Assembly (NCBI GenBank): GCA_965226055.1
Contig: CBDDCA010000005.1
Coordinates: 544,001-608,000 of the forward strand
Reading direction: 5' to 3'
Length of the DNA stretch: 64,000 nucleotides
Origin: Spirochaetia bacterium
GTDB taxonomy: Bacteria; Spirochaetota; Spirochaetia; WTKD01; G963693115
Below the pieces are notes generated by a model that made no database searches, was not told the DNA's origin, and saw nothing but the letters and a program-made list of their open reading frames with translations. Positions 28,349 to 33,043 of the stretch are shown here, piece after piece (positions within the stretch are counted from its first letter, which is position 1; every line of letters starts with the position of its first letter). Made by a program: the position numbers and the translations under genes.

Positions 28349-29437
28349 TTGTATATGAATATAGGATTTGGATTATATTATCACATGTTACATGATACAT
28401 ACTTTAAGTTTGCAAAACAATGCGGAGCTACTCACATTGTAGTGCATCTTACCGATTATTTTTATCAAGGTACGCAACAAGATGATAATCAACCTGTTGG
28501 CAATAACGATGGATGGGGAACAGGAGGTAGTAATCCACATGTATGGGAATACGAATATTTAGTAGCACTAAAAGAAACGCTTGCTCGTTATGACTTACAG
28601 CTAGAAGCAATAGAGAATTTCGATCCTGTTGATTGGTATGCTGTACTTTTAGATTTACCGCAAAAACATACACAGATGGATCGTCTCAAGCAGATTATTA
28701 GAAATGTAGGAAAAGCAAGCATTCCTCTCTTTGGATACAACTTTAGCTTAGCAGGAGTGAGTAGTAGATACATACAAGATATAGCAAGAGGGGGGGCAAA
28801 GAGCGTAGGAATGAATAGCATAGATGACTCTCCTATCCCAAAAGGAATGATATGGAATATGATATATGATAGGCAAGCGTTAGGCACTGGGTATCATCCT
28901 CGTATAGAACAAGAGGAGTTATGGGAACGACTAACCTGGTTTCTCAACGAGCTTGTCCCTGTAGCAGAAGAGAGCAATGTATGTCTTGCGGCACATCCAG
29001 ATGATCCTCCCGTAGAACGAGTGCGACAGCAACCACGTTTGGTGCATAAAGCAGGGCAATATCAGCGTTTGCTTGATATAAAGAAAAGTGCTAGTAATAT
29101 ACTAGAGTGTTGTTTAGGAACATTACAGGAAATGTCAGATATGCGTGACAGATCAGGAAAGCAGAGAGAGATATACTATTGGATAGAACATTATGTTTCA
29201 CAAAATGCAATAGGCTATATACATTTTAGAAATGTAAAAGGAAAAGCCCCTCACTATGTAGAAACTTTTATTGATGAAGGTGATATTGATATGAGAAAGA
29301 TATTATCAATATTAAGACAATATAATTATAATGGGATACTTATTCCAGATCATACTCCACAGATGACCTGTGATGCTCCGTGGCATGCAGGCATGGCATA
29401 TGCAGTAGGGTATATCAAGGCTTTGTTAGAAGCATAG
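28349..29437 (+). CDS. Mannonate dehydratase (UxuA)-family protein
   Basis: [49 protein letters not shown]. Confidence 0.88.
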
Positions 29438-29453
29438 AAAAAAAGGAGATCGT

Positions 29454-30131
29454 ATGCACAACGAAACTATTGAATGGAACAACGATACTGAACTGTTTGC
29501 ACTTATAAAGAAATATCTTTATACTCCAGTAGTAGGAGATATACTTGATACATATGAATGTTTTCATCAATTTTTACCACCAACTATTCGTCCTCTATTG
29601 CCAGAGATGAAAGTGGTAGGACGAGCTATGCCAGTACTTATGATGGATGTGTACGGAACACAAGAAAAGCCTTTCGGAAAAATGATGGAAGCACTTGATG
29701 ATATTCAAGAAGGCGAAGTTTATATTGCAAGTGGCACATATCATCGATGTGCTAACTGGGGAGAAATAATGACTGCTGCAGCTCTTGCACGTAAATCTAC
29801 AGGAGCAGTGGTATATGGGTATCACCGTGATACCCCACAAGTGCTAGAACAAAATTTTCCTGTCTTTAGCTGTGGAGCATATGCACAAGACTCATCTCCC
29901 AGAATGAAAGTAGTCGATTTTAGAGTTCCCATAGAAATGGAAGCAGTATCTATTAAAGAGGGAGATATTGTCTTTGGAGACATAGACGGAGTGCTGATTA
30001 TTCCAAAAGCATGGGAAAAGGATATCATTAGCCGTGCGCTTGAAAAAGCCCGAGCAGAAAAAGTAGTACGCAGAGAAATAGAGGAAGGCAACACAGTAGC
30101 AGCTACCTTTCATAAATACGGTATATTGTAG
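29454..30131 (+). CDS. RraA family protein (HMG/CHA aldolase-like)
   Basis: [37 protein letters not shown]. Confidence 0.88.
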
Positions 30132-30188
30132 TACACTACTCAAAAAAATAGCGAGATAAAAACAATATGAATGAAAGATTATGTATTA

Positions 30189-30920
30189 TTAGGATAGAGG
30201 ATATGGGGTTTTATATGTTTTATTATCCACCTTTATCATATCAGGCATAATACTCTTCTCCATATGTATGGGCATTATTGGTTTTTGTGTTATTCTCCCT
30301 TGATATTTTTTTACTAATTCTGCATAATAACGACTCTCTTTTCCAAGACATCCCAACGGAAAAAGTACTAATACTTTTACTTTTGATTTTTCTAAAATAT
30401 TTGTAAAAACAGGATAAAAATCTGTATCATTGCTGACAATTATTATTAAATCAGGACTTTCAATGTGTAAGTCAGATATTACATTTACTCCTAGAGCGAC
30501 ATCCGTTCCTTTTTCTTCATAAGTTACAATTTTTTCATCACATTTTTTACATTTATCAATTTTTTCACCACATTTTTTACATTTAAATTGTTTTTTTTTG
30601 CGTAAGAAATTACCGTTAATCACCGTTACTTTACAGTATCTTTCCAATACTTCCATATATTGTGTATGACGCTCTTGTTGTCCTTTATCCCTATGTTTTG
30701 GAAAAGCAGTAAAAAATTTTATATTTATACAATTATACTCTTTCAAAATAAGTAAAGAAATTAATTTTGGGATATTACACCATTTTAATGTATTCTTTTC
30801 GTATTCTCTAATATGACACATACAAGATTTAGAAGCCTTATCTTTTTCATATTCACTTTTTATATAAGTTTTAAGATAATGATAAAGATTAAATCCGTCT
30901 ATATACGCAAAAGCCTTCAT
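30189..30920 (-). CDS. NYN (LabA/DUF88, PIN-fold) domain nuclease with CxxC insert
   Basis: Acidic motifs YIDGFNLY, EKGTDV and VSNDTDF intact; CKKC x2 insert. Confidence 0.9.
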   Translation of the reverse strand: MKAFAYIDGFNLYHYLKTYIKSEYEKDKASKSCMCHIREYEKNTLKWCNIPKLISLLILKEYNCINIKFFTAFPKHRDKGQQERHTQYMEVLERYCKVTVINGNFLRKKKQFKCKKCGEKIDKCKKCDEKIVTYEEKGTDVALGVNVISDLHIESPDLIIIVSNDTDFYPVFTNILEKSKVKVLVLFPLGCLGKESRYYAELVKKYQGRITQKPIMPIHMEKSIMPDMIKVDNKTYKTPYPLS

Positions 30921-30952
30921 AAAAAAAATTGCCCCGTAGCATGCTACAGGGC
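30921..30952 (-). terminator. Terminator-like hairpin plus U8 directly abutting the NYN start codon
   Basis: Minus strand GCCCTGTAG-catg-CTACGGGGC-AA-TTTTTTTT-ATG. Confidence 0.7.
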
Positions 30953-30982
30953 GATGTATTTCTCATACAACAATCTGTAATT

Positions 30983-31012
30983 ATAATACATCAATTTTAC
31001 ACTTTTTGTCAA
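30983..31012 (-). promoter_or_regulatory. Putative sigma70 promoter of the NYN locus
   Basis: TTGACA-18 nt-TATTAT (overlapping TATAAT); phased A-tracts upstream. Confidence 0.6.
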
Positions 31013-31245
31013 GCATTTTTTGGAGTTTTTTTGGAGTTTTTTTGGAATTTTATCTACTCGTATACCTCCGATATTCATGGAACAACCGCAAAAGCATATT
31101 ACAACTGGACTGATATTCTTGCAAACACACACATTGGCATTTCTTTCTGAATTATCTCATTTTTCAGTTATCCATGCCAGCCCCTATTTGTTTAGTACAT
31201 TTTTGCAGAAATTTGAGAAAAAACGCAATCTCTTTGCCTAAGATA

Positions 31246-31274
31246 TTGAAAATAATTTCATATTAGATTACAAT
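31246..31274 (+). promoter_or_regulatory. Putative promoter for the LpoB-like gene
   Basis: TTGAAA-17 nt-TACAAT, AAGGAG RBS downstream. Confidence 0.5.
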
Positions 31275-31311
31275 ACTAAATGTAAATTGATAAAAATAAC
31301 AAGGAGAAATT

Positions 31312-31923
31312 ATGCTTAAACTATTTATGAGCGTGTCATTATCATTGACACTAATAATATCTGTAATGTCCTGTGCAAGTAATTCAAAAACAGTAACTCG
31401 TACTTCTACAGATACAATAACCGATTTCAGCGGAAAATGGAACGATACTGATAGTCGTCTTGTCTCTGAGGCAATGATTGATGATATGCTAAAAGCTGCG
31501 TGGATCAGTCGTTTTAAGGCTGAAAATAACAAGGACCCTGTTGTCATTACGGGATATATTCGCAACAGAAGTTCCGAACATATAGAAACAACAGCTTTTA
31601 TTAAAGACATAGAAAGAGCTTTTATAAATTCTGGACAAGTTACTATTGTAGCAAATGCAAATGAACGATCACAAATCCGAACAGAAAAAGAAGATCAACA
31701 AACGCAAGCCTCTTTTGAAACAATAAAAAGATTAGGAGAAGAAACTGGTGCTGATTTTATGCTCATCGGAACAATTATTTCACAAACAGATGCAGTAGAT
31801 AATTCAACTGCAGTGACCTATCAAGTGGATCTTGAGCTAATAAATATAGAAAATACACAAAAAGCATGGATAGGCACAAAGAAGATTAAGAAAGTAATAG
31901 ATCAAGAAGCATATACATTTTAA
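31312..31923 (+). CDS. LpoB-family lipoprotein (PBP activator-like)
   Basis: Lipobox VMSC; DFSGKWNDTD, RNRSSEHI, ETGADFML.G.I. Confidence 0.85.
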   Translation: MLKLFMSVSLSLTLIISVMSCASNSKTVTRTSTDTITDFSGKWNDTDSRLVSEAMIDDMLKAAWISRFKAENNKDPVVITGYIRNRSSEHIETTAFIKDIERAFINSGQVTIVANANERSQIRTEKEDQQTQASFETIKRLGEETGADFMLIGTIISQTDAVDNSTAVTYQVDLELINIENTQKAWIGTKKIKKVIDQEAYTF

Positions 31924-31930
31924 TATTGCC

Positions 31931-33043
31931 ATGCATAGCAAAAAAAAGAATAGTAAAAAAAGTTCTTCATTATTTCTACTCATTACAGTGTCGCTGTTTC
32001 CACTTATTTTCATACTCTTTAGTGTTATATCCTGTGCAAGCACAAGTAATACCGCTTCCTCCTCCAGCGACACTGCACAAGATAGACCTCAAACAACCAC
32101 AGGAACATTGCCTACAGTGTTCCTAAACCCAAACGAAACATACAATAATGCCCTATACCTTGTTGCTGTAGGGAGCGGAGATAGTTTAGAACAGGCACGA
32201 CAATCTGCATTATCAACGCTTTTACAACAAATTGAAGTGAGCATTGATACTAGCTTTGAGACAAACGAAAGCTATCAAGAATCATCTGGTTCTGCAGACA
32301 TCAGTACACAAATATTTGATTCCTCTAAAAGCTCAAGTGCAGGCACACTCATAGCGGTAGAGTATGGAGAAAGCCATCAAGACAATGTGGGAAGATTATA
32401 TGCTATTGCATATATCAACAGACAGAAAGTAGCCAATATTTATCGTGATAGAATTGAAAAAAATGAAAAAGAAATAGAACAGTTATTACAAAATGCAGCG
32501 ACAAAAGAAAAGCTAGATCAATATGCTCAATATCTAAAAGCACTAAATCTTTCTAAAAAAAATCAAGCACTCATACAGCAGCTAGAGGTCATTTCTCCTA
32601 TATCAGCAACAACACAAAAAAACAGCCCTACTACCATCAATGGCTTGCTACGCTCTGCTGCACAATCTTTGCAATTTTCCATTGAAACAAACATAGACAA
32701 TGATGTAGCTGACATTGATTTACAGAATAAACTGACTTCTGCAGTGTCTGAACTCTTGAGCAATTTGCAATTTCAAATTGTAACAAGTGGAGAAACATAT
32801 AGAGCTACTGCTTCTGTAAATTGGAGTGAAGAAACAAACGATTACCCAACTATTTTTTGGAATATTAACTTTACTATATCTGAAGTGATAGATGCAGACA
32901 ATGGAGTTACCATTATTAGTAAAAACAAAAGAGGACGATCAAAGGGTATAAATACGGATGCTGCACGCAGACTTGCTATTAACGATATTTCTACAGTACT
33001 CAATAAAACATTTATTGAATACATTAAAACTACTATACCTTAG
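31931..33043 (+). CDS. LPP20-like lipoprotein
   Basis: Lipobox VISC; [27 protein letters not shown] typical of LPP20 domains; follows the lpoB-like gene. Confidence 0.7.

Follow-up and report, generated by a model that had tools for sequence, protein, structure and literature searches.

The antitoxins of known type III toxin-antitoxin systems are tandem RNA repeats that are cut by their own toxin and fold into pseudoknots, and all three type III families were, to our knowledge, found through repeat arrays lying before ToxN-like genes. A candidate structured RNA, the abiF RNA motif, is also found before the Abi_2 (abiF) abortive-infection genes, and a role as an antitoxin of type III-like kind has been proposed for it. 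Here, we describe a locus of a Spirochaetia bacterium in which a small two-hairpin RNA, ended by a terminator, stands directly before the gene for an NYN-domain putative RNase. The locus lies in a 64,000-nucleotide (nt) stretch of DNA (GenBank assembly GCA_965226055.1, contig CBDDCA010000005.1, positions 544,001 to 608,000 of the forward strand), which we refer to as the window. Together with its relatives, it shows that genes of this NYN family are constantly accompanied by a small RNA that is strongly promoted, ended by a terminator and under structural constraint, and that the position of the RNA around the gene is movable.

The available text of PMC5086642 describes type III loci in which a single promoter serves both an antitoxin RNA gene and an endoribonuclease gene, with a Rho-independent terminator between the two and RNA in excess over protein. 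It recognizes three type III toxin families, says that all systems share one arrangement, gives repeats of 34-36 nt for ToxI and antiQ, and reports antitoxins that co-vary with the toxin clade, an occurrence on both plasmids and chromosomes and a link to abortive infection. In the part of Payne et al. available to us (bioRxiv 10.1101/2024.01.29.577857), HEC-09 is an NYN/MARF1-like single-gene candidate with three conserved aspartates, which was picked because it was embedded in Hma defense systems.

The RNA gene and the NYN gene in the window

The locus is read from the minus strand. From its upstream end, it comprises the following features.

31016..31050, minus strand: three phased A-tracts (ccaaaaaaact repeated), UP-element-like as read from the sequence, with a phasing of ~10-11 nt, directly 5' of the -35 box
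30983..31012, minus strand: sigma-70-type promoter, TTGACA-18-TATTAT, with the -35 box at 31012-31007 and the -10 box at 30988-30983
30921..30977, minus strand: small RNA or leader of ~55 nt, made up of a 5' tail, P1, P2 and a U-run (ends predicted)
30953..30971, minus strand: hairpin P1, TGTAT-gagaa-ATACA (30969-30955) with an outer G-C pair, from sequence and fold
30931..30952, minus strand: hairpin P2, GCCCTGTAG-catg-CTACGGGGC, the terminator stem, of 9 base pairs (bp), 6 of them G-C, with the loop CAUG
30921..30928, minus strand: U8 tract of the terminator, abutting the ATG (AA plus U8 = 30930-30921; ATG at 30920)
30189..30920, minus strand: gene for an NYN-domain (HEC-09-type) putative RNase of 243 amino acids, lacking a Shine-Dalgarno sequence (Pfam, PADLOC and fold match)

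An earlier account of the window, made from its letters and here called the sequence-only reading, had described a promoter, P1, the GC-rich 9-bp P2 and an AA-U8 stretch running into the ATG with no Shine-Dalgarno sequence, and all of these are present on the minus strand where it placed them. The promoter scores 11/12, the best among the 28 promoter-like sites in 29000-33000, and transcription is predicted to start at ~30975-30977. The spacing from TATTAT to P1 is ~11 nt, and two bases separate P1 from P2. The A-tract block, which may act as an UP element, is conserved in the orthologue of the same-genus genome G001, where homology to the window starts exactly there, at window 31040. The 58-nt leader folds into P1 plus P2 at -19.3 kcal/mol (z -3.5), a value that none of 200 shuffles equaled. 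Rfam 15 yielded nothing at the gathering score for this leader (best match, the trpB motif, 23.7 bits vs 59). An imperfect 21-nt repeat, reported by Tandem Repeats Finder in two copies with 80% matches at 30955-30995 on the minus strand (ATTGATGTAT... / ATTGTTGTAT...), spans the -10 region and P1 and is not a hairpin array; it may have remained from the duplication of a unit long ago, or be due to chance.

The lpoB-like gene 5' of NYN is divergent, on the plus strand from 31312, so the terminator in the window ends no upstream gene. Its Shine-Dalgarno sequence, AAGGAG, indicates that the organism uses such sequences, yet the NYN gene has none. A coding leader was considered and rejected: the frame 5' of the NYN ATG is open for 14 codons with no start codon inside, and the U-run is one base shorter in G001. 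As no start codon lies upstream and the register differs between the two genomes, the leader is non-coding.

The protein matches the Pfam NYN family with an E-value of 1.2e-5 and 26.3 bits, just over the cut-off of 24.2, and the PADLOC HEC-09 profile PDLC04163 with an E-value of 5.4e-25 and 86.2 bits, its residues 38-189 aligning to positions 18-157 of the 203 in the profile. Pfam, NCBIfam and PADLOC yield NYN or HEC-09 only, with no membership in ToxN, CptN or TenpN. Since a sequence search of the PDB returned only a weak match to 2qip (E-value 0.0064), a fold search was needed. An alignment of 23 relatives served as input for an AlphaFold2 model, which has a mean predicted local distance difference test (pLDDT) score of 85.5; the best PDB match of the model in Foldseek is the NYN/LabA-like protein 2qip (E-value 2.8e-6), and the MARF1 NYN domains 5yaa (mouse) and 6fdl (human) are matched with probability 1.00 and template modeling scores on the target of 0.72 and 0.65, respectively. 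Invariant in the 23 aligned relatives are Y6-I7-D8-G9-F10-N11, E136-K137, D140, S163, D165 and D167, with E135 nearly invariant. The three acidic motifs noticed in the sequence-only reading (D8, E135/E136/D140 and D165/D167) therefore fall in invariant or nearly invariant columns. On the model, the window protein is of NYN (PIN-like) fold with an intact acidic site, and catalysis is predicted.

Inside the NYN gene, a 30-nt direct duplication at ~30525-30584 (minus strand) encodes the tandem peptide KCKKCGEKID / KCKKCDEKIV, which resembles a CxxC...CxxC knuckle and is modeled at low confidence (pLDDT 64-77). A zinc ribbon as a family trait was rejected, since this local 10-residue duplication is missing even from the 79%-identical orthologue as well as from the wider family.

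RNA genes beside NYN genes across the family

Related loci were collected by a pattern scan and comprise the best 80 of 476 confirmed loci from genomes (563 candidate stretches), the best 80 of 261 from metagenomes (591 candidate stretches) and 37 of 131 candidate stretches from viral contigs. Their proteins are 21-38% identical to the window NYN. Among the 191 loci with at least 200 nt of upstream sequence, a terminator-like hairpin followed by a T-run lies within 200 nt upstream of the gene on the sense strand in 124, vs 27 on the antisense strand, and most sense terminators are 22-60 nt before the YIDGFN motif. After dereplication, a sense terminator is found just upstream in 111 of 175 loci, compared with 5 of 219 control open reading frames (ORFs), which are the other ORFs of at least 150 amino acids in the same loci.

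A shared form can be written from 108 unique leaders. Its 5' half has a short tail, a run of C and a P1 hairpin capped by UUCG or GNRA; its 3' half has GGG, one base, a P2 hairpin with the base GCGRGGC...GCCYCUGC, and U5-8. A Shine-Dalgarno sequence and the start codon follow directly after the U5-8. Because the terminator is followed at once by these signals, there is no room for a second promoter, and the NYN mRNA of tandem loci can be made only via read-through.

The sequence-only reading had called for a covariation check upstream of NYN homologues, and conserved, covarying hairpins are what this check found. For the largest set, which we call class A, RNAalifold predicts 16 pairs from 43 sequences (alignment A3), of which 12 have compensatory changes on both sides. 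Class A cells are paired in 93.4% of cases, vs 78.4 ± 0.9 in shuffles and at most 61.5% when partners are slid, and 109 cells are doubly changed vs 34 in shuffles; none of 500 shuffles was as high on all five measures. We searched 206 loci, one plasmid locus and the window with a covariance model of class A, R1. Of the 206 loci, 92 have a sense-strand match to it at E <= 0.01 immediately before NYN. Rfam 15, run on the RNA of 39 related loci, returned no family at threshold, the abiF motif included.

The RNA also has its own promoter. A promoter-like site scoring at least 9/12, with its -10 box ending 30-71 nt before P2, is present in 68 of 110 unique tandem loci, and in 55 of these 68 the distance is 30-43 nt; equal control windows inside the coding region contain such a site in 7 of 110. 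In the window, the distance from the -10 box to P2 is ~30 nt.

In a FastTree phylogeny of 179 distinct proteins, in which supports are local Shimodaira-Hasegawa-like values, loci of one protein clade tend to share an RNA class: when loci are labeled by class and arrangement of the RNA, the tree requires 27 label changes vs 87 in shuffles, a value reached by none of 200 shuffles. Class A forms one large clade that mixes many phyla, and the clade of the window consists of 7 rows on one branch with support 91.

The RNA gene is not confined to the position before NYN. In 8 loci (6 distinct), R1 places it on the strand opposite NYN and convergent with the gene, at a distance of -25 to +8 nt just past the stop codon. 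Convergent loci occur in at least 2-3 separate places on the protein tree, and some have a recognizable promoter of their own, e.g. TTGACA-16-TATCAT in L083 and TTGACA-18-TAGCCT in L202. In class B the RNA is divergent, located 5' of NYN on the opposite strand and transcribed away from it, with a script match in 17 of 23 loci inspected. The class-B form consists of CCCC, a 9-bp hairpin with an AGC/AGU-containing loop, CCGACG, P2 and UUUCUUUUUU. Sixteen aligned copies give 15 predicted pairs, 11 of them with compensatory changes, and 92.5% of cells are paired vs 76.9% in shuffles (0 of 500 shuffles as high). The first P2 pair is G-U in 12 of the 16 copies and U-runs follow P2 on the transcribed strand, and together these fix which strand is transcribed. 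Two class-B RNA genes stand in tandem beside one NYN in L038 and L165, and the second copy in L165 is degenerate. As the RNA is convergent or divergent in these relatives, it is a separate transcription unit and not merely a leader.

There remain 46 loci that fail both the strict terminator criterion and R1 in either orientation. Most of them, including three Campylobacter-type loci in which P2 lacks a U-run, show two hairpins by eye; on inspection, for which there was no defined rule, ~5 are without RNA evidence and 3 have too little upstream sequence.

Close relatives, flanking genes and plasmids

Only one protein in a large database is more than 40% identical to the window NYN, and 7 of 61 related genomes contain a match. 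The same-genus locus L002 in G001 is syntenic and encodes a protein with 81% amino acid identity, and its DNA is 92.8% identical from window 31040 downward. Its leader is nearly identical to that of the window, and at this closeness the comparison is uninformative. Between lpoB and the A-tracts, corresponding to the window gap 31226-31041, L002 contains an element of ~1.2 kb (L002 174-1382) with a 359-amino-acid ORF; this is likely an insertion sequence, and it has left the promoter, RNA and NYN block intact.

The informative relatives are L003 (40% amino acid identity, another genus), L009 (a second, truncated copy in the genome of L003), and the metagenomic loci L091-L093 (36-38% identity), L094 and L095 (33-35%). 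The layout is kept at 36-40% protein identity although the leader sequence is unrelated, and in most of these relatives a promoter close to consensus precedes a small hairpin, whose sequence is unrelated, and then a GC-rich hairpin with its U-run. L095 has a weaker promoter (TTGCAT) and a poor U-run, and L094 has no canonical start codon near the motif. P1 plus P2 is the minimum-energy structure in all nine leaders of the clade that were folded (z -2.0 to -5.0), and in 9/9 the position of P1 is kept although the hairpin sequence is unrelated. TTGAC is invariant in the 7/7 aligned leaders of the clade; across these, P2 has 96.6% of cells paired, and 4 of its 9 pairs have changed on both sides. 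The U-run abuts the ATG, as in the window, in L002, L009, L091, L008 and the Leptospira plasmid locus L222.

The window's own genome (G000) has a second NYN locus, L008 (contig C6:441915-445277), on the minus strand at ~1490-2070 of the locus. Its promoter and hairpins are intact, as are the terminator (GCCTATCC-tata-TGGATAGG), the U8 and the ATG; its NYN frame has lost ~95 central codons and carries a frameshift, which makes it a pseudogene beside an intact RNA gene. Broken NYN genes beside a recognizable RNA are found in L008, L009, L209, L215, L225, L226 and L227. In five complete genomes, chosen as holders of the module, R1 finds nine copies, of which six precede an intact NYN, two a 5' remnant, and one stands alone; none of the nine precedes another gene family. 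In 151 genomes of one order, R1 finds six copies in three genomes, two before intact and four before broken or decayed NYN genes. Orphan class-A RNAs with no NYN after them were noted in L017 (2178-2247, plus strand, ~600 nt downstream of an intact module) and in L214 (G061).

In the window, the NYN gene is flanked by a convergent RraA-like aldolase gene and divergent genes for LpoB and LPP20 lipoproteins, with MsrB and PGM genes nearby. It is thus among sugar-metabolism, lipoprotein, MsrB and PGM genes and not embedded in Hma or another defense system. The sequence-only reading called the gene a lone one with no protein antitoxin partner, which agrees with these neighbors and with the relatives: near-identical loci aside, no recurring partner protein is seen among 100 flanking ORFs of loci L011-L065. 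Housekeeping functions make up most of these flanks; the few other genes seen encode transposases, integrases, RloB, HipA and an MmeI-type methylase.

With P0013, a typical member of the family, as the query, 432 plasmid records gave a match, among them 203 of Klebsiella, 61 of Xanthomonas and 36 of Escherichia. Relatives occur in only 3 of 50,697 phage genome records, and in 37 IMG/VR contigs. A 4.6-kb mobilizable plasmid of E. coli with five annotated genes carries a 33-nt tandem array before NYN (3.5 copies, 88% matches), each unit of which is a P1-like hairpin with an A-rich linker; the array is followed by a terminator, a Shine-Dalgarno sequence and the start codon, and the region folds at z -6.9. 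A tandem array separated by a terminator from the toxin gene is the order on which the definition of type III loci was based (PMC5086642), and the plasmid form is ToxI-like in this respect. The array region is present at 96% identity or more on 17 small plasmids of E. coli, Salmonella and Klebsiella, and two of the plasmid alignments are ~30 nt longer, which suggests a difference of one array unit. Tandem Repeats Finder detected no array of hairpin units in the upstream regions of 207 chromosomal, metagenomic and viral loci. On Klebsiella IncR, P. aeruginosa, Xanthomonas and Leptospira plasmids, a promoter, at least one hairpin and a terminator stand directly before NYN, and the Leptospira copy is of class A, with a U-run abutting the ATG as in the window.

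Two further observations concern plasmid annotation. In L223 (P. aeruginosa plasmid NZ_CP077992.1), the RNA-NYN module is located directly after a gene annotated as a HigA-family antitoxin, and its surroundings thus contain a further gene of addiction-module type. The plasmid matches H41, H42, H47, H62 and H72 are more distant NYN relatives whose annotations give a fusion to, or the name of, DUF2384 / Xre-MbcA-ParS antitoxin domains or 'HspA/nicB monooxygenase', names that probably reflect a fused second domain or annotation carry-over.

Interpretation and comparison with known systems

The reading that we favor, and consider slightly better than evenly supported, is that the locus is a type III-like module in which the RNA would be the antitoxin and the NYN RNase the toxin (or an abortive-infection effector), with toxicity and binding proposed from sequence evidence. 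We would give about even chances to the broader statement that these loci form a widespread, undescribed class of toxin-antitoxin or abortive-infection systems, in which a HEC-09 NYN RNase is checked by a cognate two-hairpin RNA of ~55-75 nt. Such RNAs would constitute a superfamily outside Rfam with several co-evolving classes, in tandem, convergent, divergent or arrayed form, spread horizontally over many phyla and hundreds of plasmids (Klebsiella, E. coli, Xanthomonas).

In this type III-like module, the strong promoter would produce a two-hairpin RNA of ~55 nt, with P2 as an efficient intrinsic terminator at which most transcripts would stop. Read-through transcripts alone would carry the NYN frame, which starts right after the U-run without a Shine-Dalgarno sequence, so that the RNA would be in large excess over the protein. 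The RNA would bind the NYN nuclease and keep it inactive. When RNA synthesis stops, following plasmid loss or the shut-off of host transcription by a phage, the shorter-lived RNA would decay, and the freed nuclease would cut cellular or phage RNA. The core proposal of the sequence-only reading, a short RNA, in excess owing to the terminator before the nuclease gene, as the functional partner of NYN, is strongly supported by the family-wide RNA, its covariation, its tracking of protein clades, its several orientations and the plasmid array; the remainder of that proposal, namely toxicity, RNA binding and phage defense, we infer.

Several observations weigh against the antitoxin reading. R1 gave no match to the window leader at E <= 1, so that what ties this leader to class A is its architecture, its position and the protein tree, not RNA sequence homology; P1, P2/terminator, promoter distance and position are the features that the two RNAs share. 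The protein clade of the window lies outside the class-A clade. Like the window, most loci carry just one unit, made up of two plain hairpins (UUCG/GNRA) with no predicted pseudoknot, which sets them apart from type III antitoxins. Many are located among housekeeping genes and not in defense islands. The decay of NYN beside a surviving RNA fits a costly toxin outlasted by its antidote; such an asymmetry is also expected neutrally, as a 70-nt target is about 1/9 of a 650-nt one, and it deserves little weight. In the one published test, a HEC-09 clone that included the putative native promoter region did not protect against the phages used, and the passages on NYN in the available text mention neither toxicity nor an upstream RNA (bioRxiv 10.1101/2024.01.29.577857). 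In the Campylobacter-type loci L021, L172 and L198, which include viral contigs, there are two hairpins with no U-run (ccgagcc...ggctcgg acttATG), and the RNA of this lineage may be unterminated and either only a 5' untranslated region or released by processing.

These last three loci also favor a cis-acting, autoregulatory leader, an explanation that we regard as rather unlikely. The hairpins would then be an attenuator and 5' untranslated region that set the level of NYN mRNA, the terminated RNA would be a by-product with no role in trans, and NYN or another factor may bind or cut the leader as feedback. Tandem loci, which are the majority and whose NYN mRNA is reachable by read-through only, fit a cis attenuator equally well when taken alone, as does the window considered by itself, and in the three loci without a U-run the RNA can only be a 5' untranslated region. 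Sequence is conserved at the base of P2 and where P1 joins P2 (GCGRGGC / GCCYCUGC), as would be expected of a protein-binding site, and eukaryotic NYN/PIN-like RNases such as Regnase-1 recognize stem-loops in their own mRNA. However, the 8 convergent and at least 17 divergent RNAs cannot gate NYN, yet they are adjacent to it, promoter-driven and structurally selected, and with such placements in relatives a purely cis-acting riboswitch or attenuator does not account for the family as a whole. Moreover, the 3.5-unit array of the E. coli plasmid has no obvious use in attenuation, and no antiterminator pairing is conserved across classes, as judged by inspection rather than by a formal test.

It is also conceivable, and in our view improbable, that the RNA is a positive cofactor within a ribonucleoprotein, needed for folding, targeting or activation of the nuclease and not an antitoxin. 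Any obligate RNA-protein pair would show the co-occurrence in every orientation and the co-diversification of RNA class and protein clade seen here, and a cofactor would agree with the lack of any mention of HEC-09 toxicity in the text available. However, the RNA has no variable unpaired segment that could be a guide, its loops being interchangeable UUCG/GNRA caps and its 5' tail only ~4-8 nt, and a layout that yields excess RNA, tandem arrays and a preference for very small plasmids are all traits of addiction modules. That nothing specific is present, and an ordinary promoter and a stray or upstream-gene terminator happen to precede NYN by chance, is scarcely credible. The 4-kb region 29000-33000 does hold just two terminator-like sites, compared with 1.9 ± 1.2 in shuffles, so that placement and conservation, not number, carry the weight, and the window and G001, being 92.8% identical throughout, say nothing as a pair. 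However, the upstream gene is divergent and receives no terminator from the locus, and the layout persists at 36-40% protein identity with unrelated leaders. Chance is excluded by the terminator controls (111/175 loci vs 5/219) together with the covariation in two RNA classes.

If the antitoxin reading is true, these loci would be a fourth type III family and would widen the concept of RNA antitoxins to a different nuclease fold and a mostly single-unit RNA. HEC-09 would gain its missing second component, which may bear on the lack of a single-gene phenotype, and RNA catalogues would gain a new, well-supported structured RNA. A role would also be assigned to an unannotated element on 432 plasmids of the collection searched, some of them very small, where NYN is one of 3-5 annotated genes. 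For work in a laboratory host, the form on the E. coli plasmid is a tractable model.

In the literature searched, with subscription journals and bioRxiv supplements outside its scope, we found no paper that connects an RNA antitoxin, or an RNA motif lying upstream, with NYN or HEC-09 genes. Among known systems, some type I toxin-antitoxin loci have convergent or divergent small RNAs. The 3' end of the convergent RNA described here overlaps the end of NYN by up to 25 nt, and antisense pairing with the 3' end of the mRNA is conceivable. In most loci, however, the RNA gene is in tandem with NYN, as it is in the window, and RNA and mRNA are of one sense, so that antisense control cannot be general; in contrast to type I, the selection seen here is on RNA structure and not on complementarity to the mRNA. 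The abiF motif is similar in its placement before an abortive-infection gene and differs in both protein family and RNA. HEC-09 and the window protein belong to the same family, and the three aspartates given in the available text of the preprint agree with our alignment and fold; the RNA partner is additional here.

Type III systems are the closest in layout, and the window shares with them the order of promoter, RNA, Rho-independent terminator and nuclease gene. The nuclease differs, having an NYN/PIN-like fold and not that of ToxN, CptN or TenpN. The single order of promoter, RNA, terminator and toxin is present in the window and absent from the 8 convergent and at least 17 divergent relatives; in contrast to type III, the NYN-associated RNA gene may be convergent or divergent with its own promoter. 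As the available text of PMC5086642 reports for type III antitoxins, the RNA class tracks the protein clade. The repeat array, the hallmark of type III, is missing from the window and present in the small-plasmid lineage of E. coli, where the form of 33 nt x 3.5 before the terminator comes close to the 34-36 nt given there for ToxI and antiQ.

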